Assembly: GCA_000004695.1 (NCBI GenBank)
Contig: CM000151.3
Location: forward strand, 6,880,001 to 6,944,000
Origin: Dictyostelium discoideum
Lineage: Eukaryota
Direction of reading: 5' to 3'
DNA: 64,000 nt
In this document: in pieces, positions 1,531 to 22,781 of the stretch
How positions within the stretch are numbered: position 1 is the stretch's first letter
How the letters are laid out: each line of letters begins with the position of its first letter
Program-made: the position numbers and the translations under genes
The notes under the pieces: model-generated
Told to the model about the DNA's origin: nothing
Databases searched by the model: none
Seen by the model: the letters and a program-made list of their open reading frames with translations, nothing else

Positions 1531-4500
1531 TTATTTATTTAATAAAGTATCAAATGGATCAACTAAAATATTTTTAGAGAAAGCATTTAAAGATTCTTTA
1601 AATTGACCAACCATTCTTTGTAAAGTTCTATTTCCAGCCATAATCGGTAAGATTTCTTTTAATAGAGATCTTTTTGAGAGACCTAAAATAGTTGATTCCC
1701 AAGGTATTGATAAACTATTATTTGAGAATGGATTACTTTCCATACTCATACCAGTAGTATGATTATGATGGTGATGATGATGATGATGATCATTTAAAGT
1801 TGAAGAAGGACCTAACAAATCAGTACAAAGATCTGTGAGTTTTACAATATTACAACAATTTGTTAAATATTTCGTATAAATTAATAACCAATGTTTATAT
1901 TCCAATGAACTCTCTAATACTTGAGCTAACCAAAGTTGTTTCTCTAAAAATAATGATGTTGAAAGTTGTTGTTGTTGTTGTGATTCACTATTACTTAATG
2001 ATAGTAAATTTGATACTGATGGTTGTTGTTGCTGCTGCTGCTGATTACTAATATTATTAGTTATATTTGAATTTATAATAGAATTAATCCTATTATTATT
2101 TTGAAGTGTTGATAAAATACCTGTATTAGTTGTATCATTACTGTTATATTCTGACAAAGCACCCAATCTATCGGTAATTTTAACCCATTCACCAACATCA
2201 CTAGAATAAACAAAACTATCACCATTTGAAAATGTAATGATTGGTTTACCACTCTCTTCTGTTACCATTGCATGTTTAATTGTTAAACTATCTCTATTCT
2301 TTAAGAATGGTAATTCTCTATTTGATAATTCTACCTTTTTCTTTAAAACATTCCAAACACAAACAAATCCATCACATGTTATCGCTAACAAATGATTAGT
2401 TTTATTACTTTCTAAAAATGATAATTGATTTCTTGGTACAATATTTGACATTATCTATTTAAAAATTAAATTATTAATATTTTAAATAATAATAATAATA
2501 ATAATTGTTTTTTTTTTTACTAAATTTTACTTACAATTGTACCATTTTTATTAAAAATATATAAAAGTGAATCTAAAGTTGTAGCAGCGCACCAATTTTT
2601 ATTACCAGTAATTAAAGTTATACGACCTGCTATTCTATTTTCCCAAAGTTGAGTTTCAAATGATAAATATCTAATGACAGAGAAATATTCTACAGTATTA
2701 TCTTGAAGTTCTTGTTCAGTTATATTTACATCGATTATAATTGAACCACCAACGCCAGATGTAGTTGTAGTATTTGGTGTCATTGTTGGGAATAATCTAT
2801 TATTTAGTGCAGAGGCTTGAATTGGTTGATCAATTAATTTCTTTGAGATTTTATTTGTTAATGTTGGTAATGGTATTGAAAATCCTGTTGGAATAACTGT
2901 TGATATAATCATATTATTATTGTTGTTGTTGTTACTAAATTGTGAATTTTGATTTTGATCAGTTTGTTGTTGTTGTTGCTGCTGTTGTTGTTGTTTATTA
3001 CTACCACTACTCGATTTCTTTTTTTTAGATATTGATATTGTTGGTTCTGGTTCTGCTGATCTTCGTTTACTACTATTATTACTATTACTATTACTACCGC
3101 CAATATTAGGAGTAGTATGTTTTGTTGATTGATCATCTCTATCACTTTTATCTCTATCACTTTTATCATGATGACTTGATTTATGAGTATCTCTATGATG
3201 AATGTGATGATTATGATTATTATTATTATCTTTTATTCTTGGATGTGAAAATCTATCATTACTACCATCGATTGTACCATTTAATTTATTTAATCCAAAT
3301 GGTACCATTGGTGTCATTTTAGTTGGTGTTGCTGTTTTTTCTGTTATTGTTGTCGCTGTTGTTGTCGATGATGATGATGATGATGGTGATGAGGTTTTAG
3401 TTGATGAATCAGTTTCCATTGGTTCATTACCAGTTGGTTTTAATGAAGAGGATGAATGTTGTAATTGTTGAAGATGTAATGGTATTGCAACTGGTTGAGG
3501 TTTTGTAATATTTTGAGAACTACTACCAATGAAAATTGGAGTAATTCTTCTCTTTCCTCCAGGCATTATGGTTTGTTTTTGATTTTGCATTGCCAATTGA
3601 GTTGGTTGTAATGTTGATGTACTATTTGTTTTTGAATGATTTTCTCCACCATTTTGATTGTTTATACCACTACCGCTACCACCACCACCACTAACACCAC
3701 CACCACTAACACCACTACCAACTCCATTTGCATTTGATTCTTCCATTGCCAATTGATCAGGATTCTCTGGTAAAATTGCATGACTACCACTATTGGCAGC
3801 TGATGATAAATTACCACCAGCTGCACCATAAATAACATTACCTTCTTTATCGATTGTGACAGCATCACCATAATAATTTTTAAAGAATATTTGTTTCTCC
3901 TCTGGTCCAATTGGTGAACCACCAATCTCTTCAGGATCCAATGAAATGTAACCAACTGTACCATCAGTTGAACATGCAACAAATGAATAACCATCTGAAC
4001 ACCATGAAATATCTTGAATACATTGATCAAACAATGATCTAGTGACCATTAATGAACGTGGTGATGATGATGACCATAATGATAATGTTGAATCTTGACC
4101 ACCCAATAAAATTAAACAAAACTTTTGATCCCTAGATTTAAAATCCTTATAAATCTTTGATGAACATCTTGATACAACCACCGCTTTTCTATGTCCAACT
4201 AAATCTAATCCAATATCCCAATCTGTTCTACTAACTAATACACCTGTATGTGTTGCATTATTAATACCATGTGTTGCAACTATAAATTGTCCATCTGGTG
4301 TCCAACTTTTAAAATAATAAATAAATAATAATAATAAATTATATTATTTAATGAAAATTAAAGTTAGTAAAAAATTATTTTTTTTTTTTTTTTTTTTTTT
4401 TTGGTTTTTTTGTTTTTTTTTTTTTTGTTTTTTTTTTTTTTGTTTGTTTGATATTCTTTCCGTACCTTGGTCTTAAAAAGAAAGAATTACCAGAATGTTT

Positions 4501-9394: not shown

Positions 9395-10166
9395 TACTTG
9401 ACTGTGTTGAGCACCAACAGCAGTTGGTGGACCATTTGGACCTCTCCAAACGATTGGATTGAAAACTTTACCACCAGACATATAATGAGTTTTAGCAGAT
9501 GAATTGATGATGTGATCAATTGCTTGCATAGCAAAGTTGAAAGTCATAAATTCAATGATTGGTCTAGTACCTGCCATAGCAGCACCAACACCAATACCAG
9601 CAAAACCAGCTTCTGTAATTGGAGTATCAATAATTCTATCACCACCATATTTATCGAATAATCCTTTAGTGATCTTGTATGCACCATTATATTGAGCTAC
9701 TTCTTCACCCATAATAAAAACTTTTTCATCTCTTGCTAATTCTTCATCCAATGCACTATTAATTGCATCACGAACTGTAACCTATATATAAAATAAAATA
9801 ATTTATTAATTATTTTAATTTAACAATAATAATAATAATATAATAAATATAATAAAAATAATAAAAATAATAAAAATAATATAGTTTTTTATTTTATTTT
9901 ATTTTATTTTATTTTATTTTATTTTTTGACACTATGGTGGGGTTCATTGTGGATTTTATTTTTTATTTTATTTTATTTTATTTATTTTTTTTTTTTTTTT
10001 GTTTTTTATTTTTTTTTTATTTTTTTTTTTTTTATAAAATAAATAAATAAATTGAATACATATAAAAAAAAATTCAACGTACCTCTTTAGTAGCATAAGT
10101 TCTAGTGATAATTCTAAAGTTAACTAATAATGATGGTTGAATTTTTTTTAAAATTGAAGACAACAT
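8601..10166 (-). CDS. pdhB: pyruvate dehydrogenase E1 component beta subunit, mitochondrial; complement(join(8601..8661,8748..9289,9398..9781,10083..10166))
   Basis: It starts [132 protein letters not shown]. It ends [98 protein letters not shown], which is collinear with human PDHB including the C-terminal IPQVKDIIFAIKK-type tail. Donors are GTACGT/GTAAGT. Confidence 0.9.
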
Positions 10167-10199
10167 TTTTGAATGATGATAAGTTAAAATTGTGATTTG

Positions 10200-10246
<47 letters not shown>

Positions 10247-11140
10247 AAGTCGCTGAAAAAATTGAAAAAAAAAAAAAAAAAAATTAATTTAAAATAAAAA
10301 AAATTAAAAAAAAATAAAAAAAAAAAACAATGTTAATTATTCATTCTTTTTTTGTTTTTTTGAATTGTTTTTCCCGATTGGATATTTAATAAACGAATTA
10401 ATTTCTTTTATAAGAGATATTATCTTTAAAGTTATAATAAATAAATTTTAATTTTTGTAAATTAATTAATTTTTATAAATTAATTATTTTTTTTTTTGTT
10501 TCTAAAAAAAAAAAGTTAATAGGATATTAATTTTAAAAGTGTTTAGAAAACAAAAAAAAAACAATAAAAAAGTCTTTAATGTAAAATTACTACCACCTAA
10601 TAAATAAATTTTGACATTTTATCATAAAAACATCAATGAAAATCGATCATATAAATAAAAATTAATTATTGGACAAGTTTGATAAATTCCAGATAAAATT
10701 AATACGACTTTACAAAAAATAAAAATAAAAGAATTATATTCAACTTTTATTTATTTAAAATAAAAGAAAAGAAAATAAACTTAAATTGTGTTTTTTATCC
10801 AATTCAATCAAAAGAACAAAAAATACACCCACTCCCCAATTACATTTTTATTTTTCCCAATTTTAATTTTATTTTTATTTTTTATTTTTTTATTTTTTAT
10901 TTTTTTATTATTTTTTTTTTTAAAAAATTTATTTATTATATTATTATATTATAATATTAAATTTTTTAGGTAATTAATTTAATATTAAATTTTAACTCTA
11001 CCCCAAAAATGTAACGTGTGCGCATAAATTTTCGTTTTTCATAAAAAAAAAAAAAAAAATCAAAAAAAAAAAAAATTTCAGGGTGACAAAAAATTTTTTG
11101 AAAAATTTTCTCATTCTTTCAGTTTAACATTTCCCCAAAC
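10167..11140. promoter_or_regulatory. divergent intergenic/promoter region shared by pdhB (-) and rps18 (+)
   Basis: A 974-bp AT-rich spacer lies between the two start codons. Long poly(T)/poly(A) tracts sit at 10200-10250 and 11040-11075. No ORF. Confidence 0.4.
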
Positions 11141-11920
11141 ATGTCATCCGTACGTATTTGCCGTCACATATTTTATAGATAGTGAAAGTAGAGGAGAAGA
11201 GAGAAAAGATTGAAACAATATGGTGACCATGTTGTTTATATAGTTGGATTGAAATAGATTGATACTATTTCATAATAGATTGAAGATAATATAGAATAGA
11301 GATTATGGTCCTCCATAGATACACATATACTAATCAAATCCAACAACAACAAATAAATATATTATTTATAGTCATTAGTTTTCCAAGGAGAATTCCAACA
11401 CATCATTCGTATTTACAATACCAATGTTGACGGTAGAAGAAAGATTCAATACGCTCTTACCTGTGTTAAAGGTGTTGGTCGTAGATTTGCCAATTTAGTC
11501 TGCAAAAAGGCTGATATTGATACCTCAAAAAGAGCTGGTGAACTTTCAAAAGATGAAGTCGAAAGATTAACCACCATCATGAATCACCCAAGACAATACA
11601 ATATCCCAACTTGGTTCCTTAACAGACAAAAGGATATTAAAGACGGTAAATACTCTCATTGTCTTGCCAATCAAATCGATGTCAAATTCAGAGAAGATTT
11701 AGAAAGATTAAAGAAAATCAGAGCACACAGAGGTGTCAGACATCACTTTGGTCTCCGTGTTAGAGGTCAAAAGACCAAAACCACCGGTATGTAACAAATA
11801 ACAAACAACAAAGCATAATAAATATAATCATAAACCAATAATAACATATACTAATATAATTAATTTTTAAAATTTATAGGTAGAAGAGGTCGTACTGTTG
11901 GTGTTGCTGGTCGTAGATAA
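11141..11920 (+). CDS. rps18: 40S ribosomal protein S18 (uS13); join(11141..11149,11372..11786,11880..11920)
   Basis: [154 protein letters not shown] is nearly collinear with human RPS18. There is a tiny 9-nt first exon. Donors are GTACGT and GTATGT and acceptors are TTATAG/TTTATAG. Confidence 0.9.
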
Positions 11921-13916
11921 ATTCGTTAAACCCATCATAATAAACTATTTTTTAGTAATATAGCATTAAGTGCGTTTTATTTATTTTAGTATTTTTTATT
12001 GAGTTAGAGGAATCAAAAATTATTATTATATTACTATTATTATTTTAAGTCAATAGTTTTTTAATTTAATTTTATTATAAATCTACAAATCTATATTTCA
12101 TCAATTAATTGGACATTATTCAATACAAATAAAAAAAATAAATGACAACATATATGAACTAAAAATAGAATTTTTTTTTTATATAAACACACCGATCCAA
12201 AAAAAGTGTGGTTAAAATTTAATAACAATATCTAGATTTAAATTTTTTTTTTTTTTTTTTTTTTTATATGTATACTAAAATAAATAAAAAACAAATATAT
12301 ATAAAAGAAATAATTATTTTTATAAATGACGATCATTTATTTTTTATTTGTTATTTATGTCAGTAAAAAATGTTTTGAGAGAAATTTTTTTTTTTTTTTT
12401 TTTATACATACTAACCAAACTTTAAATCAGATTCTACATAAACTAATGTTATAAAAAAAAAAAAAAAAAACAAAAATGAAAAGATATTGGATTTAAATAA
12501 CTGCGAAATAGATTTAAATCAATGAAGTTTTAATAATATCCAAGACCAAACATATGCATAAAAAAAAAATTAAAAAAAAAAAAAAAAAAAAAAAAATTAT
12601 TAAAAATTTATTATTATTTTATTCCAGCTTGTATTTAATTTCCAAGGCAAGAGAATAAAATTTCTATTAATATTCATTAATTTTTTTTTATTTTTTTAAA
12701 GATTTATTAAGAAATACTAAATACTTTATAATGGTTTAATTATTATTTTATTTTTTTTTTTTTTTTTGATTTCATTTTTGATCATGTGATCCAATGAATC
12801 AATATAAAAAAAAATAAAAAAAAAAAAAAATAAAATATTTTAATAAAAATAAAATATTTTGGTTAGTGGTGGGTGTTGATATCAACATTTTACTTTTTAA
12901 AAATCAAAAACCTATTTTTAATGTCAATTGCAACATTAACTAATTACAAATTCTTTCATTAATTCCGAATATTATTAAATATTTTCTTTGAAAACAAAAA
13001 AAAAAAAAGAATAAAAAAACAAAGAGTATTTTATAAAATTGTTTTACATATTTTATATTTTAGTTTTTTTTTTTTTATTTAATTTTTTTTTTTTTTTATT
13101 TTATTTTTATATAGTTTTATTTAATAATTTACGAAAACATATTCTCTTCATTTTAAAATATAAATAATGATATATAGTAAGTTGTAGAAAAAAAAAAAAA
13201 AAAAAAATGAAATTAATAAAAAATATTTTGTTATTTATTTATTAACAATTATTTAATTTAAATTATTTCAGAATCAATGGTTTTTAAATATTATAAATGT
13301 GAATCATGTAATTCAAATCATATAGAATCAGGTTCATCTCATTCAATAAATTATTGTTTGGATTTAAATTCAAGTAAAATTTATAGAAATCTAACATGTA
13401 CATCATTTTTTACTCGCCCAATTTTCCAATCTTTTTAAATATTAGGTCAACACTGAATTTCTTGAAAAAAAAAAAACAAATAAAATAAAAAATCCATCAA
13501 ATGAAAAAACAATTGAACATATATTCCGAAATCAAAATAAGATTAAAAAATTTCAAATTGTTAGATTTTATTTATATTTTTTAAAAAATATTAAAACAAA
13601 CAATTAATAAATTATTTTCATTTTATTTTGCTATTAAAAAAATCATTTATTTCTAAAATTGTTTTTTGAGAAATTAGAATTAAAAAAAAAAAAAGAAAAA
13701 CCCCACAAACAAAAATAATAAAATTAATTCTGGTTAGTCGACACATAATGAAAATAAAACTAATTCTGGTGAGTCAACATTTTGAAAATAAAATTAATTT
13801 ATTTTTAATAAAAAAAAGATTTTTCAATTCTTTTTTTTCTTCATTATTCAAGACGAAAATTGACCATCTTCATCAAAAAAAAAAAATTTAATTTAATTTT
13901 TTTTTTGGTAGTGAAT

Positions 13917-14366
13917 GGGGCATAAGATCAGTGAATTTATTTGATTTTCATTTAAAATATCATCCTGAAAGAATACAAACCTATATTAGAGCAGCATTTG
14001 GCTCAATCTTCCTATATTATCATCCAAAATTTATTATTAAGGTTTTAAAATTTTTAGAAGAGTCTATCAATCATAATAAACCATTTACTTTAACTATAAG
14101 TGAAAGAAATTATTTCATTATTAAATATTTAGATAGTTATAAATATAATGAAGAATTGTTTTAAAATGATATTGAATAATCCGATATCACCAACTTCAAT
14201 ATTTCGAAATATCCAAATTTTTAAGAAATTTTCAAGTGTAGATACAAGAATGGGTGTATATAGTTATTTAACTTATAAAAAATTACTCCCTTTTGGATTT
14301 AATAGTATTCGAACATCATTTTATTACCGTAATGAAAGTTCATACGAACCTAAATTAACTTTCTAA
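13917..14366 (+). pseudogene. truncated, frameshifted paralogous fragment of the large gene at 17934..22781; it covers codons ~110-250 and then runs straight into the 3' end/3' flank
   Basis: ORFs 13931..14164 and 14148..14366 sit in different frames. They read LFDFHLKYHPERIQTYI...HPKFIIKVLKFLEESINHNKPFTLTISERNYFI and ...PISPTSIF...KKLLPFGFNSIRTSF, mirroring VDLFDFHLKYHPEELQTHI...HPKLIIKVLNFFKESINHNKPITLTKNERNYFI...PISSTSIF...QKLLPFGFNNIQTSF in the large gene. The 3' flank at 14355-14400 (AAATTAACTTTCTAAAAA...ATAAAACAATA) matches the 3' flank of the large gene at 22848-22895. Confidence 0.6.
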
Positions 14367-14914
14367 AAACAATAATAAAGTATAAAAATAAAACAATAAA
14401 TTATATACACAAATATTAAAAAATTCTTTTGGTAATAAAAAGGTTATTTAATAATTTTTTTTATTTTTTTTTATTTATTATTTTTATCATTTTATTATTT
14501 AATTAAATGGATGTGAATTGAATGTTTTTTTTTTTTTTTTATTGGTGCATGAGAGAAAAAAAAAAAAAAAAATTAAAATAAAAAAATAAAAATAAAAACA
14601 TGGGTGTTTTGAGATATTATTAAATTTGATTTTTTTTTTTTTTTTTTTTTAATTTTTTTATTTTTTTTATTTTTAATAAATAAACTTTGTTTTTAAATGG
14701 TTGAATAATAGAAATAGAAATTGATTTAAAAAAACTAATTAAAATCATATCTTTTTTGTATTTATTTATATTTTTTTTTTTTTTTTTTAATTTCCAAGGA
14801 TTTAATTATTAATTTATTTTAATTTCCATTTAGTATGGATAAACAGAAAACTCAAAAATATACAAAATGATATAGAATTTTAAAAAAATAAAAATAATCA
14901 TTCTTTTTTATAAT

Positions 14915-14954
<40 letters not shown>

Positions 14955-15351
14955 ATAAAAAAGTTTATTTTTAGAATTTAATTATTTATCATTCAATTTT
15001 TTGTAAAAATATTTAGTGTGTTGGTTTTAACATTTTTTATAATTTTATATTATTTTGTTATATTTCTGTTTTATATTATATTATTTTTATTTTTTAATTA
15101 GCTATTTATGAAACAAATTCTTCATTTCAATTATTCAAATTTTAAATATAATTATATTTATATATTATAAGCATATTGAAATTAATAGATATGAAAAAAA
15201 TTATTGTGAATAACATATATTTTTTTCTTTTACTATTTTTTTAAAATAAAATATATCACGAATCGTGTAATCCATCATAAAATCAGATTCATCTCATTCA
15301 ATAAATATTTTTTGAATCTAAATTCAATTAAAATCATAGAAATCAAACATA

Positions 15352-15387
<36 letters not shown>

Positions 15388-16050
15388 AAATTAAATAAAA
15401 TAATAAAATATATAATCAATCTATTATTCATTTTTAAAATTTCAAATGGTTATAAATTATTAAAAATATTTTTTAAATAAACTCTAGCAACCAATCTTTT
15501 AAATATTTAATTAAATTATTTTCAACCAGTGTTTAAATTTTTTTTTTTATAATTTATTTCTCATCCCATAGGAATCTAATCTATTACTATTTTTACTATT
15601 TTTATTTGATCCATTTATTAAAACACATATATTATATATATATAAATTATTTTTTATTTTTTATTTTAATTTTTTAACTATAAAATGTAATCAAAAAAAA
15701 AATTAATTAAAATAAAAACCAAAAACTGTCTTAAACAAAGCTATAAAAAATGATATTTAGTAAGGTTTTTTTTTTTATAAAATTGTTTTTTTTAATAGGT
15801 TTATTAACAAACTATTTTTCTTTTAGAAAATTTAATTTCAATATCATTAAAATCAAATTCGTCTCAAAATGGAATTAATAAAAAAGAAATGTCTTCAACA
15901 TCTCAGTCTCAAAATTTATCATTAAAATCAAATGGAATTTTATATTATAGACCACATTTTAATAATTATTAAGTTATAAAAAATTAATTCCATGATTTGT
16001 TTACCAACTATCTCAAGGGAGAATTAAATGAAATTTAATTTGTTCAGAAG

Positions 16051-16083
<33 letters not shown>

Positions 16084-16152
16084 AAAAAAAAATCCAATCG
16101 ATCAATTTTACATTTTAGTTTAAGATAAATTTAATTTTATTTAAAATTTAAG

Positions 16153-16195
<43 letters not shown>

Positions 16196-16343
16196 ATTAA
16201 AAAAACGTTTTTGTTTAATAAAAATAAAATTTAAAAACTGATTAACAAAAAATTTTTTTTTTTTTTAAATTTTAATTTTTTTTAATTTTTTTTAATCCGA
16301 TTTTTTCAGATATTTTTTTTTTTTTATTTTTATTTTTTTTTTT

Positions 16344-16374
<31 letters not shown>

Positions 16375-16380
16375 GAAAGA

Positions 16381-17085
16381 ATGGAGACTAAATTAAATTT
16401 TGATGAAGCTATAAATAAAATTGACAAGATATTGAAACTTGGTCAACTTTTTAATGTAGTCGGAGGAGATATCTTTTTCTGTATTTGTAGTACTAGTAAT
16501 TCCGATGTAAATAATATTGATAAACAAGAAAATAATGATAACGGTAATAGTGATAATAAATTTGATGAGCAAGTATGCAAACGTTTTGAAAATAATTTTA
16601 ATACCAGATTTACAAATATGGTAATCAATATAAAAACTAAACCAGTTAGAGTTGAATTTATTGGTAATTGTGATTCAAAATCAACCGAATTAGAAATAAT
16701 TAAATATTATCGTTCAAATCCAAATTTTATTAATTTAGTAGATTATGAAAATAATAGTTCAACCTCTTCAAATGAAAATAATAGATATATTCATATTCGT
16801 CTTTATTCATTACCAAAAGAATGGTCAATGACATATGTTTGTGAAAAATCTTTTGAACATTCCCATACCCACACTCATGAACAAGGTCATGGTCATCATC
16901 ACAATCACCATCATAATCAGAATGATCATCACCATCACCACCATAATGATCTTGACCCTTCCCATCACCATCACCACCACCATGAGGATGATCATTCTCA
17001 TGAACATGGACATTCCCACTCTCATACTCACACCCATACTCACCCAGGCTCAGAAGAAACCTATCAATGTATGAATTTCCATTGA
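16381..17085 (+). CDS. hypothetical 234-aa protein with a C-terminal histidine-rich (HxH/HHHHHH) tail; single exon
   Basis: Uninterrupted ORF. The C-terminal 80 aa read EHSHTHTHEQGHGHHHNHHHNQNDHHHHHHNDLDPSHHHHHHHEDDHSHEHGHSHSHTHTHTHP. The N-terminal 150 aa are ordinary composition (METKLNFDEAINKIDKILKLGQLFNVVGGDIFFCICS...). No homologue recognised. Confidence 0.5.
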   Translation: METKLNFDEAINKIDKILKLGQLFNVVGGDIFFCICSTSNSDVNNIDKQENNDNGNSDNKFDEQVCKRFENNFNTRFTNMVINIKTKPVRVEFIGNCDSKSTELEIIKYYRSNPNFINLVDYENNSSTSSNENNRYIHIRLYSLPKEWSMTYVCEKSFEHSHTHTHEQGHGHHHNHHHNQNDHHHHHHNDLDPSHHHHHHHEDDHSHEHGHSHSHTHTHTHPGSEETYQCMNFH

Positions 17086-17283: not shown

Positions 17284-17389
17284 CTAAAAATAGAAAAAAA
17301 AAAAAAAATCTGTATAATAATGTTCATGATATCAAATATTTTTCATTGAAATTTAATTCTTATTAATTTGAAGATTGAAAGAAAAAAAG

Positions 17390-17933
17390 ACTATTTCTTG
17401 GATGTCCAAAACAAAAATTCATTTTATTTTTTTTATTTTTTTATTTTAATTTTTTTAATTTTTCTTTTTTCATTTTTTTTTTTTTTTAAAACAAAACTTA
17501 AATAAAAATAATAAATAATCAAAGAATTGGATGAGTACTTCAAACCATTATCACTTCAAATTGTTATTTGTAAGAAAATAATAATAAATAATCAAAGAAT
17601 TGGATGGGTACTTCAAACCATTATCACATTTAAATCTTTGTTATCTGTCCCAAAATTACCATAATAATTTCAGCCTAAAAACGGGTTGTTTATGCATGCT
17701 TAAATTGATATGGTAATTTTGGGACAGATAACAAAGATTTAAATGTAGAGCTTTTATTTTTTTCTATTTCTAAATAAGTTGGTATGAATTTTGAAAATCA
17801 AAAGAAAAAAACACGATTTCTTGGATATCCAAAACAAAAATTTTTTTTTTTTTAATTTTTTTATTTTTTCATTTTTTTTTTATTTTTTTTTTTCTTTTAA
17901 ACAAAATATAAATAAAAATAATAAATAATTATA
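17390..17933. repeat. composite repeat region upstream of the large gene, with four parts: two direct copies of its promoter/5' leader (17390-17530 and 17810-17933); two tandem 48-bp copies of a fragment homologous to the gene's 3' coding end (17507-17553 and 17578-17627); a perfect 37-bp inverted repeat (17628-17664 / 17710-17746); and a 45-bp spacer
   Basis: The direct copies share TTTCTTGGATGTCCAAAACAAAAATT...AAACAAAACTTAAATAAAAATAATAAATAAT. GATGGGTACTTCAAACCATTATCAC resembles GATGGGTACGTCAAACCATTATCATC at 22631-22657. The inverted repeat is ACATTTAAATCTTTGTTATCTGTCCCAAAATTACCAT with its exact reverse complement. Confidence 0.7.
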
Positions 17934-20900: not shown

Positions 20901-22781
20901 AAACCATTATCATCTAATATGGTTGAATGGTTTGGTATAATTGTATACAAAGATTATTCAGATTATCAAGATATTATAAATTACTTATTTAATAAATATA
21001 AACACCAATTGGAACCATATATAATTTACTATAAATTAAAAATAAATAATAAATCAATAACTAATAATCAGTTACATTCAATTTTATGTAATAAATCATC
21101 ATCGAAATGGAAAGAAATTACATCGAATCTAATTGGTAAGGCCGCTGCTACAATTAAAGATAAAGAAACAATCGATTGGTTATCAGATATAGAAACAGGT
21201 GGTTGTAGTAATTTAAAAATAAGAGATGCTTTACATTCAAGATTAAATCATATGGAACTTGATTTTAGTTCATTGGAATTATTAGAGTATGCAAGAATCA
21301 AATTTAAACAAATCATTTCAATTTTCGATTTATGTGATGAGTTTTTCGAAATTCATATTTTACATACTCATGATGAAATTGAATCATTAATCAATCGTTT
21401 AAACCAATCAAACTTTAATGAAAATGAAGATTTATTTAAAAATTATATGATTCAAATAATTGAATTTGGTTCAAGACTTTCAGCTAAACACATAAGATCA
21501 ATCTTTAAATCATTGGAATATGGCGTTGACAAGTCATCATTGGGAAATGATAATTATAAAGAGTGGAAGTATTTAATAAACAAAGTTTTCAAATACGAGT
21601 ATAGAAGGTTTTTTGATAACCCCTCATACATCCATGAAGAATATTTTTTGGGCCAAATACTACGTGATCATAAAAACGAAGAATACAAAGAATACAATAT
21701 ACCAACTCGACAAGAATCTCAAATAATCAATCTTTCTAAAATTAAAGTCAATTTCAATCACTTTGCAAATGTAACTTCTTATTTATTTCAAGGATCCATC
21801 GAACTTTTAAATTTTGAAGGTGTTCAATTTATTCTTGATAATTTAAATGGTAAAGATTTAAAATTAAATGAAAAAGCATTTAAAGATCATTTTCATGATA
21901 GAATCTATTCATGCGAATATGTTTCTAAAGATTTATATGATACCATTCAATTTTTAATTGAAAAATTCGAAGATGGTCAATTATCACTATCAAATCTATC
22001 ATTGATATTAAATTACTTATTTTCCAAGTTAATTAGAGTCAATGATTTAACAATTGATCAAATCAACATATCTCATCAATTAATATCAAACTATATTGAA
22101 ATAGATAGTTCAAAATACAATTCATACTATTATTTAAAAATATTATCACCAATTATTGAATCATGTATTACCGTTATCGAAGGTCCTACAAGTGATGATG
22201 AAGATGGTAATGGAAAACCAAGACCATTCTGTCATTATGATATAGATACATCAGTATATACATTCGAACACATATTTACAAATAGAAATAATAACGATCA
22301 GAACCAATTTATCGATTCAACAATCATGGATATTGTAAAAGATAATTTTACAATTGAAATATTTTCCAAAATGTTAGATAATAATAATCCAAGAATTAAT
22401 TTATTTTTACATTATTTCGAAATGGAATTAAAAAAAAGAAAAACAAGTAATGATTTCGAAAATGTATTTTTAGAATTTGAACAATTGAAATTAATAATTA
22501 AAACATTTGATTTAGAATCATTTATTAAATTTGAATATTTATTACAACAATATCAATTCTACTTATCACCTGATATCGATGAATGGTCAGATATAAACAA
22601 AGAGTATGCAAATGATCAAGAGGATATAAATGATGGGTACGTCAAACCATTATCATCTAATTTGGTTGAATGGTTTGGTAAAATTTCATTCATATATTAT
22701 CCAGATTATCCAGATATTCTTAATTACTTATTTGATAAATATAAAAACCAATTCGAACCATATACTAATTATATAAATTAA
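17934..22781 (+). CDS. large lineage-specific hypothetical protein, 1615 aa, single exon, built from an N-terminal unique region plus two tandem ~555-aa internal repeats
   Basis: Continuous ORF. Repeat 1 is about 19400-21070 (HSILGNESSSKWKEITSN...KPLSSNMVEWFGII...). Repeat 2 is about 21070-22740 (HSILCNKSSSKWKEITSN...KPLSSNLVEWFGKI...). The two share roughly 75-80% amino-acid identity. No known domain recognised. Confidence 0.75.
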   Translation: MNNEYNELLFWKVFKNNYLLNCILKNKCCYKSKKFKTITSIDSMLKHKQYQLLICKLKADENLYFKGKYGNDEIINRIEDIEVFKEIYSLLLFKGYQDTRDHRILFDSIWGIKSVDLFDFHLKYHPEELQTHITTSIYSILVYNHPKLIIKVLNFFKESINHNKPITLTKNERNYFIMEYLYYCRYGRNIEELKEKMKMIWNIPISSTSIFHNSEKRVPSANVGCFLKYQKLLPFGFNNIQTSFDCSKENPRSYSSIGDRRGDENNQRSVYSINHLNMFSSFCYDFDDSICEYIKDVKGNFECISSSIKSVLLYFKLYYCNYDYKSKSKSIPTSIQTQIDIIIENSKHRRCTVYQSIKQLFQLLAIESKSIVLYAFYLKEYNEPIDTIELSEEIQLLLIYYMIKTYNTNILKFLLKKHLKIKLTKLDLDYIGESYLKFLFKSKQINKNNIIMFYKNYTSQKSIIIEDLDEKPLDDAISTKELIDLDNKRLHSILGNESSSKWKEITSNIIDNDMIVTIKDKETIDWLSDIETGGGCSILKIRDALNSKLKQMKLDFSTLELLEYARIKFKQVIPILDLNKELCNIHILRTHDDIESLINRLNQSNFNNNENLFKYYMIQIIQFGSRNSMKYLRLICDSIDELLMDYEGWVILDDTLRRFYINSYLIEGEIWDNSVGYHENKKFKEYKIPTQQTCQIINLTKIKVNFNHFPNVTSYLLQTFIELLNFEGVQFILDNLNGKNLKLNEKAFKDRFHDRIYTCKYLYKDLIEMIQFLINKFKDGQLSLSNLSLILNFLFSMLIRVNDLTNDQIKTAYQSISNYIEIDSSELNSYYYLKTLSPIISSCIIIFRDNGGGDVRPLLEYHIDTSVYTFEHIFTNRNNNDLNQFIDSTIMDIVKDRFYSNLNKMLDNNNPRINLFLHYFEIQLKYKNENDFKGPFLNYKLLKLIIKTFDLESFIKLDSLLENHNGNCEQEGSNNRILSELEKFYFNWKKPLSSNMVEWFGIIVYKDYSDYQDIINYLFNKYKHQLEPYIIYYKLKINNKSITNNQLHSILCNKSSSKWKEITSNLIGKAAATIKDKETIDWLSDIETGGCSNLKIRDALHSRLNHMELDFSSLELLEYARIKFKQIISIFDLCDEFFEIHILHTHDEIESLINRLNQSNFNENEDLFKNYMIQIIEFGSRLSAKHIRSIFKSLEYGVDKSSLGNDNYKEWKYLINKVFKYEYRRFFDNPSYIHEEYFLGQILRDHKNEEYKEYNIPTRQESQIINLSKIKVNFNHFANVTSYLFQGSIELLNFEGVQFILDNLNGKDLKLNEKAFKDHFHDRIYSCEYVSKDLYDTIQFLIEKFEDGQLSLSNLSLILNYLFSKLIRVNDLTIDQINISHQLISNYIEIDSSKYNSYYYLKILSPIIESCITVIEGPTSDDEDGNGKPRPFCHYDIDTSVYTFEHIFTNRNNNDQNQFIDSTIMDIVKDNFTIEIFSKMLDNNNPRINLFLHYFEMELKKRKTSNDFENVFLEFEQLKLIIKTFDLESFIKFEYLLQQYQFYLSPDIDEWSDINKEYANDQEDINDGYVKPLSSNLVEWFGKISFIYYPDYPDILNYLFDKYKNQFEPYTNYIN

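Follow-up and report, generated by a model that had tools for sequence, protein, structure and literature searches.

Template switching is documented both to create hairpins and to perfect existing ones (PMC8794818, PMC10710096, PMC5453318, PMC8604942). Template-switch mutations are the subject of Loytynoja & Goldman 2017 (PMC5453318) and of Monttinen & Loytynoja (PMC8794818), de novo miRNAs from template switching that of PMC10710096, and homogenisation of inverted-repeat arms in yeast that of PMC8604942. The hairpin described here is like these mutations in its reverse-complement copy of adjacent sequence, perfect arms and native spacer, in its probable seeding by a short prior inverted repeat, in the lack of a target-site duplication and of mobility, and in its form as a hairpin of pre-miRNA size in non-coding DNA, which here is presumed to be transcribed. 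It is unlike them in its 49-bp arm, long in comparison with the short-range primate events, in having unmapped switch points, and in its recurrence in the spacers of one gene family, not described for those events.

Within the same species, the thug-S miRNA hairpins are a close known parallel. A multi-copy miRNA with the strands UAUGGCUGCUGAAAUUAAUGUGG and AUUAAUUUCGGCAGCCAUAUU is given by Meier et al. 2016 (PMC4894637 Table 2) and has six genomic copies as miRNA_can_D3 (PMC4894637 S4 Table). It is called "miRNA-like_D3" in the text of that paper and "miRNA_can_D3" in the tables; its attribution to thug-S is apparent from the text. A thug-S-derived miRNA is also attributed there to Avesson et al. 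2012. Comparison of Table 2 with S4 Table shows the 21-nt species named 3p yet placed 5' of the 23-nt "5p" species in every listed copy. This implies that one of the two, arm names or strand labels, has been interchanged, which affects any comparison with the thug-S hairpins. Like these, the present hairpin is AT-rich and roughly 100–120 nt long, and an 18–23-nt unit (GCTGAAATTAATRTGG and its complement) forms the paired core. Unlike them, it matches in the core only, lies outside the six listed genomic positions and is seemingly single-copy; no small RNAs are reported from its locus, and the loop side is ambiguous since names and coordinates in PMC4894637 disagree.

MITEs and foldback elements share with it their small size, lack of coding sequence, internal spacer and long terminal inverted repeats. 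The present hairpin differs from them: it is without a target-site duplication, the DNA searched contains no further copies of it, no clean empty site is seen, and parts of it are homologous to the native spacer in relatives. Young plant MIRNA genes formed by inverted duplication (PMC3237417) resemble it in a perfect or near-perfect hairpin beside gene-family fragments and downstream of a promoter. It departs from them in that the complementarity of its arms to the parent family is too low to be usable; the best 21-mers have at least 3 mismatches and match outside the family coding sequence.

Structure and setting of the hairpin

The window is the whole 64-kb stretch of DNA that was analysed, from chromosome 2 of Dictyostelium discoideum AX4, with a G+C content of 20–23%. 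The hairpin lies upstream of DDB_G0276559. The order from left to right is His-rich gene (16381-17085), promoter copy A, two 73-nt units, hairpin, promoter copy B and DDB_G0276559 (Table 1). Related loci are numbered: L001 and L003 are from D. discoideum, L002 and L004 from D. cf. discoideum, L011 from the sister strain (GCA_054883475.1) and L012 from D. citrinum.

Table 1. Features of the hairpin locus and palindromes of related loci. Positions are those of the window unless another locus is named.
Feature	Position	Strand	Remarks
Promoter copy A, orphaned	17329..17519	+	homologous to the single promoter of other strains and to copy B; CTTGGATGTCCAAA motif and T-run kept
Two tandem 73-nt units with family-gene 3' coding-end fragments	17504..17649	+	CAAAGAATTGGATG[A/G]GTACTTCAAACCATTATCAC at 17520-17554 and 17593-17627
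Left arm, perfect inverted repeat, 38 nt	17626..17663		exact reverse complement of 17709-17746
Left inner stem	17664..17674		imperfect in AX4, perfect in GCA_054883475.1; putatively AX4-derived substitution at 17664
23-nt loop CTAAAAACGGGTTGTTTATGCAT	17675..17697		colinear with the L004 orthologous spacer on both sides
23-nt stretch like the thug-S-derived miRNA_can_D3 23-mer UAUGGCUGCUGAAAUUAAUGUGG	17691..17713	+	ungapped identity
Right inner stem	17698..17708		putatively AX4-derived substitutions at 17701 and 17707
Right arm, perfect inverted repeat, 38 nt	17709..17746		outer 18 nt and flank homologous to the L005 spacer
Promoter copy B, directly 5' of the ATG	17784..17933	+	L001 9814-9954 at 84%; L002 9793-9962 at 79%
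DDB_G0276559	17934..22781	+	1615 aa; 100% identical to NCBI DDB_G0276559
L001 palindrome	3239-3297 / 3327-3385		59-bp arms, 29-nt spacer; ~170 bp upstream of another family gene
L003 version of the L001 palindrome	3246-3286 / 3354-3394		41-bp arms, one indel
L002 palindrome (D. cf. discoideum)	9736-9766 / 9777-9807		31-bp arms, 10-nt spacer; ~230 bp upstream of a family gene

The hairpin is a perfect inverted repeat of 38 bp with a 45-nt spacer of 31% G+C, 121 bp in total. Extended inwards, the pairing covers 49 bp at 94% in AX4, with 3 mismatches and a 23-nt loop. ACATTTAAATCTTTGTTATCTGTCCCAAAATTACCAT is located at 17626-17662 on the forward strand and its exact reverse complement at 17710-17746. 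The original prediction had claimed a perfect 37-bp inverted repeat around a 45-bp, relatively GC-containing spacer, and both were recovered, the perfect match reaching even 38 bp. Its right arm (17710-17746) was placed correctly; its left arm (17628-17664) was set 2 nt too high, and its element length of 119 bp was incorrect. The view that such arms are beyond chance agrees with the finding of no further copy of ACATTTAAATCTTTGTTATCTGTCCCAAAATTACCAT at up to 3 mismatches in the 64-kb window and of 0 matches in 100 shuffles. A scan for perfect inverted repeats outside low-complexity sequence, with arms of at least 16 nt and a spacer of up to 400 nt, was passed in the window by the hairpin at 17626-17746 alone. 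Also as predicted, a promoter duplicate stands beside the hairpin (17367-17475 and 17790-17898, 81% identity), and the left arm adjoins a fragment of the large gene's 3' coding end, identical at 23/24 positions between 17603-17626 and 22632-22655 and at 35/37 between 17590-17626 and the gene 3' end of L004 (13703-13739).

The RNA fold of 17600-17770 (171 nt, hairpin included) has an energy of -69.3 kcal/mol, z = -11.7 against shuffles. The folding energy of the AX4 hairpin is -0.52 kcal/mol/nt at 37°C and -0.67 at 22°C, below the -0.2 kcal/mol/nt that serves as criterion for miRNA genes in D. discoideum; that of the sister-strain hairpin (GCA_054883475.1) is -0.77 kcal/mol/nt at 22°C. No Rfam family is reached by the hairpin at the gathering threshold. 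The best sub-threshold matches, on both strands, are plant MIR7807, MIR837 and MIR1862, with 46–64 bits against thresholds of 84–117, and are structure-driven.

Promoter copy A also matches the single promoters of other loci, that of L001 (9758-9942) at 79% and those of L003 and L005. The heads of the tandem 73-nt units are identical at 48/50 positions (96%). The source of the coding-end fragments lies ~150 nt ahead of the family stop codon. In the intact gene, the distance from AAACCATTATCA to the stop is 135 nt (22644 to 22781). In the remnant, 135 nt from AAACCATTATCA (17615) reaches 17750, a TAG is present at 17746-17748, and AAATGTAGAGC at ~17750 stands where the family has AAATTAAAAC. 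Because the two distances are equal, the place and length of the hairpin are taken to be those of a tandem paralog's final 135 nt, now decayed. Colinearity with the paralog 3' end by BLAST (64% over 176 nt) draws most of its signal from the first 40 nt and was set aside in favour of the argument from length and anchor. What remains at the site is the 3' end of a family gene that has been lost, with the orphaned promoter of that gene (copy A) 5' of it. A truncated paralog is retained at the hairpin position in L002 (D. cf. discoideum). The locus is clearly rearrangement-prone, and the hairpin is a small structural scar in its spacer.

Strain comparison and origin of the parts

Orthologous loci were located through homologous proteins. 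The same hairpin is present in GCA_054883475.1 (L011; contig JBTAPE010000033.1) at the orthologous position and with identical flanks. Over 20.7 kb, this locus and the window agree at 99.49%, and the repeat of L011 is perfect over all 49 bp. The hairpin is not an artefact of the AX4 assembly, part of the outcome that the original prediction had named as fatal to it, because the arms occur also in this independent assembly. It is real and heritable. Both the hairpin and the promoter duplication are missing in D. discoideum L001 and L003 and in D. cf. discoideum L002 and L004; the hairpin is missing in D. citrinum as well. Presence is thus variable among the strains, a comparison that had been proposed at the outset. 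The hairpin-free alleles of L001, L003, L002 and L004 differ over the whole spacer; L004 retains the inner parts without the outer arms.

AX4 differs from the sister strain at 17664, 17701 and 17707, and each difference breaks or weakens a separate pair. Three of the 27 AX4-versus-sister substitutions (20.7 kb) are located within 24 nt of inner stem, where ~0.03 are expected. The sister-strain base is also found in L004 at 2/3 of these sites and in the thug-S miRNA sequence, if this is accepted as a relative, at 3/3; the AX4 states are for this reason taken as derived. On this view a perfect 49-bp palindrome came first, and AX4 is now eroding it from the centre. The series, perfect over 49 bp in one strain, with three substitutions in AX4 and missing elsewhere, is a dated natural example of a perfect hairpin that was made and is beginning to decay within one species. 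The arms are perfect, whereas the nearby duplicates are 4–19% diverged (81% identity for the promoters, 96% for the unit heads), and the repeat is therefore either recent or homogenised after the nearby duplications.

Elsewhere in the window, 11/27 of the substitutions between AX4 and GCA_054883475.1 are clustered in 185 bp of AT-rich non-coding DNA (12837-13021) with no obvious inverted repeat. The cluster could be due to gene conversion, sequencing error or a local hotspot.

The loop and inner right arm (17685-17720) match L004 9634-9670 at 30/37 positions, and the inner left arm and loop (17659-17693) match L004 9683-9722; shuffle p < 0.0005 in both cases. CCATATTAATTTCAGC, the left inner stem of the sister strain, is identical to L004 9683-9698 (16/16). 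On these alignments, the inner stem and loop are native to the family spacer. The inner segments are in permuted order relative to L004, so that extra steps (e.g. tandem duplication) are needed. The outer 18 nt of the right arm with its flank (17729-17773) match L005 9669-9721, which belongs to the spacer 5' of a paralog in another strain; the core agrees at 29/32 positions, with shuffle p < 0.0005. A weaker likeness, 15/19 with a shuffle p of about 0.015, is seen between the left arm at 17638-17656 and the tail of tandem copy 1. L005 was also considered as a collapsed copy of both arms and rejected as such; the apparent left-arm piece is better regarded as a variant of the local 28-nt tandem unit, and the evidence from L005 is limited to its match with the right arm and flank.

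Explanations of the hairpin

A template-switch (fold-back) palindrome explains the evidence best: a short native inverted repeat, possibly thug-S-derived, would have seeded it in what was left of a deleted paralog (probability about 0.6). The body of a tandem paralog would have been deleted, with its decaying 3' remnant and the orphaned promoter copy A left in place. Intrastrand template switching (fold-back copying) in replication or repair would have made the palindrome, the switch extending and homogenising the short native inverted repeat to a perfect 49-bp repeat. AX4 has since acquired three substitutions that break pairing, and the inner stem holds all of them. If promoter copy A still fires, the hairpin would be transcribed in a non-coding leader and may be a substrate of DrnB, the Dictyostelium Dicer. 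Length, native spacer and inner stem, and perfect arms are those of a fold-back inverted repeat with no net foreign insertion. The element is best read as locus-specific and non-mobile, and the palindrome would be a mutable DNA structure. The copying mechanism is inferred, as is the overwriting of one arm by the other. Witnesses of the original arm conflict: the left arm is favoured by the tail of tandem copy 1 and the right arm by L005. With regard to a four-point template-switch model, the only close allele (L011) is already palindromic, the others are too diverged, and the switch points are unmapped. The hairpin would be a further example of a known mutational process, with modest extra interest from the strain series and from recurrence in one family.

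The original prediction had offered a foldback/MITE-type insertion or a palindromic breakpoint of the local duplication. The breakpoint fits best: the hairpin lies in a decayed 3' remnant between an orphaned and a live promoter, and its parts are homologous to related spacers. A MITE-type insertion is unsupported, with no target-site duplication, no second copy in the DNA searched, no clean empty site and no gain in length (135 nt in both). No direct repeat of 2–10 nt is present at the flanks (...CCATTATC/ACAT and ATGT/AGAGCTTT), no further copies of the element exist in the 64-kb window or in ~146 kb of related loci, and the arm has 0 matches in JGI metagenomes. Presence or absence with an intact empty site is not seen, as L001, L003, L002 and L004 differ throughout the spacer. 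A wider form of this reading, a foldback- or MITE-like element copied or miniaturised from the repetitive thug-S or one of its relatives, homologous to the thug-S hairpins that yield DrnB/RbdB-dependent miRNAs, is unlikely. It draws on the miRNA_can_D3 23-mer, which aligns ungapped to the loop/right-arm region at 20/23 positions in the sister strain (L011 11307-11329) and at 18/23 in AX4; the complement of the 23-mer agrees with the sister-strain inner left arm at 15/16, and similar 18–23-nt matches occur in the family spacers of L006 (14178-14200, 21/23) and L004 (minus strand, 9699, 18/23). By a rough estimate, chance would give fewer than about 1e-3 matches of this kind. However, the match spans ~23 nt only, the outer 33 bp of each arm are without known thug-S counterpart, no second copy occurs in ~210 kb, and the hairpin fits the length of the gene remnant that it replaced. 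The core is probably related to the thug-S repeat unit, as judged from the published 21- and 23-nt miRNA sequences alone, and at least the core may be of transposon origin. The likeness of the core to a known transposon-derived miRNA is one reason for interest in the hairpin.

A hairpin-RNA role is plausible. The stronger proposal, doubtful as a whole, is that of a functional, evolutionarily young hairpin-RNA gene (miRNA/siRNA precursor), transcribed from promoter A, processed by DrnB and under selection, with the other family palindromes as analogous regulators. Consistent with it, ~140 nt separate the T-run (17469-17487) of promoter copy A, which keeps the family motif, from the start of the hairpin downstream; accepted miRNA hairpins of D. 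discoideum span -0.51 to -0.73, and the 22°C folding energies of the AX4 hairpin (-0.67) and the sister-strain hairpin (-0.77) are close to this range; upstream hairpins recur in the family and are unrelated in sequence; and near-perfect hairpins can be miRNA loci in D. discoideum, e.g. mir-1184 in a pseudogene exon. Against it, the arm sequences are missing from the deep small-RNA sequencing lists of PMC6161686 (Table S1, Figure S2) and PMC4894637 (Table 2), and arm 16-mers were not found in the full-text literature or in the Liao 2018 supplement. All three changes specific to AX4 reduce pairing, with no compensatory change among them, no site at up to 2 mismatches for any hairpin 21-mer is present in family genes or elsewhere in 210 kb, the hairpin is missing in four related assemblies, and Rfam yields only the sub-threshold, structure-driven plant MIR matches on both strands. 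An artefact of the AX4 reference assembly or of cloning has a negligible probability; artificial fold-backs can arise in libraries, but both arms at the orthologous position of the independent GCA_054883475.1, between identical flanks, refute it.

The thug-S miRNA core has three matches in JGI metagenomes, in coding-like sequence of unrelated organisms with 26–44% G+C; these were judged chance matches and rejected as relatives. In L006 (13740-13850 and 14062-14256), a relatively G+C-rich segment between two family genes carries the inverted repeat GGTGCA...TGCACC and adjoins the 21/23 thug-S miRNA match, which is flanked by (TTTA)n / (AAAT)n as a long microsatellite palindrome. Rfam gave nothing in this segment.

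Recurrent palindromes and the gene family

The inverted-repeat scan covered ~210 kb in total, comprising the window, L001-L006, L010 and L011. Only three independent high-complexity perfect inverted repeats were found, mutually unrelated in sequence and all located 170–250 bp upstream of the ATG of a family gene. The arms of the L001/L003 palindrome include the family core promoter motif TTCTTGATAACCCAAGACAAAAAT, and the palindrome is for that reason regarded as an inverted duplication of the promoter itself. In the L002 palindrome, the right arm is a conserved promoter-upstream element and the left arm an inverted copy of it, the footprint that fold-back copying is predicted to leave. This palindrome is missing in the other D. 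cf. discoideum assembly, L004. Family spacers make up ~4% of the scanned DNA, and the chance of such placement is, by a rough estimate, ~1e-3 after conditioning on the first case.

Three independent palindromes upstream of genes of one orphan family suggest either that a local mutational hotspot exists or that hairpins are selected for; the association could reflect such selection and not mutational bias. It is quite improbable, as a general proposition, that the family spacers repeatedly make, and perhaps retain, unrelated long perfect hairpins (three cases in six assemblies) that are transcribed from orphaned or live promoters and diced to small RNAs. If true, this would offer a natural case of template switching that supplies new miRNA/siRNA-type regulators of a fast-evolving gene family, with the thug-S unit as one seed.

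DDB_G0276559 is an in-frame fusion of ~1.5 family units, one full unit and the C-terminal part (~600 aa) of a second, with internal DNA repeats that are 86–87% identical. No Pfam domain is present in its protein (orphan family), and Pfam gave nothing informative on the proteins of neighbouring genes. No mention of the gene IDs of the locus was found in the literature. Orthologs of DDB_G0276559 in other strains are 1122–1973 aa in length; the family array therefore changes by unequal exchange.

At 10000-16380 of the window, no ORF of at least 100 aa is present and the G+C content is 14–16%; L001 and L003 carry there an extra family gene of ~1100 aa. AX4 and GCA_054883475.1 appear to have lost this family gene upstream of the His-rich gene. 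In D. citrinum (L012 6642-7430), NTF2 directly follows the His-rich gene, with no family gene between. The window segment 17096-23171 (spacer, hairpin, family gene) has no counterpart in D. citrinum and is either confined to the lineage of D. discoideum and D. cf. discoideum or lost in D. citrinum.

A near-palindromic family promoter motif, CTTGGATATCCAAA, is located at 17811-17824 and 17398-17411 of the window, with the form CTTGGATGTCCAAA in the orphan copy and CTTGAATATCCAAG in L001. The motif resembles a binding site for a dimeric factor.
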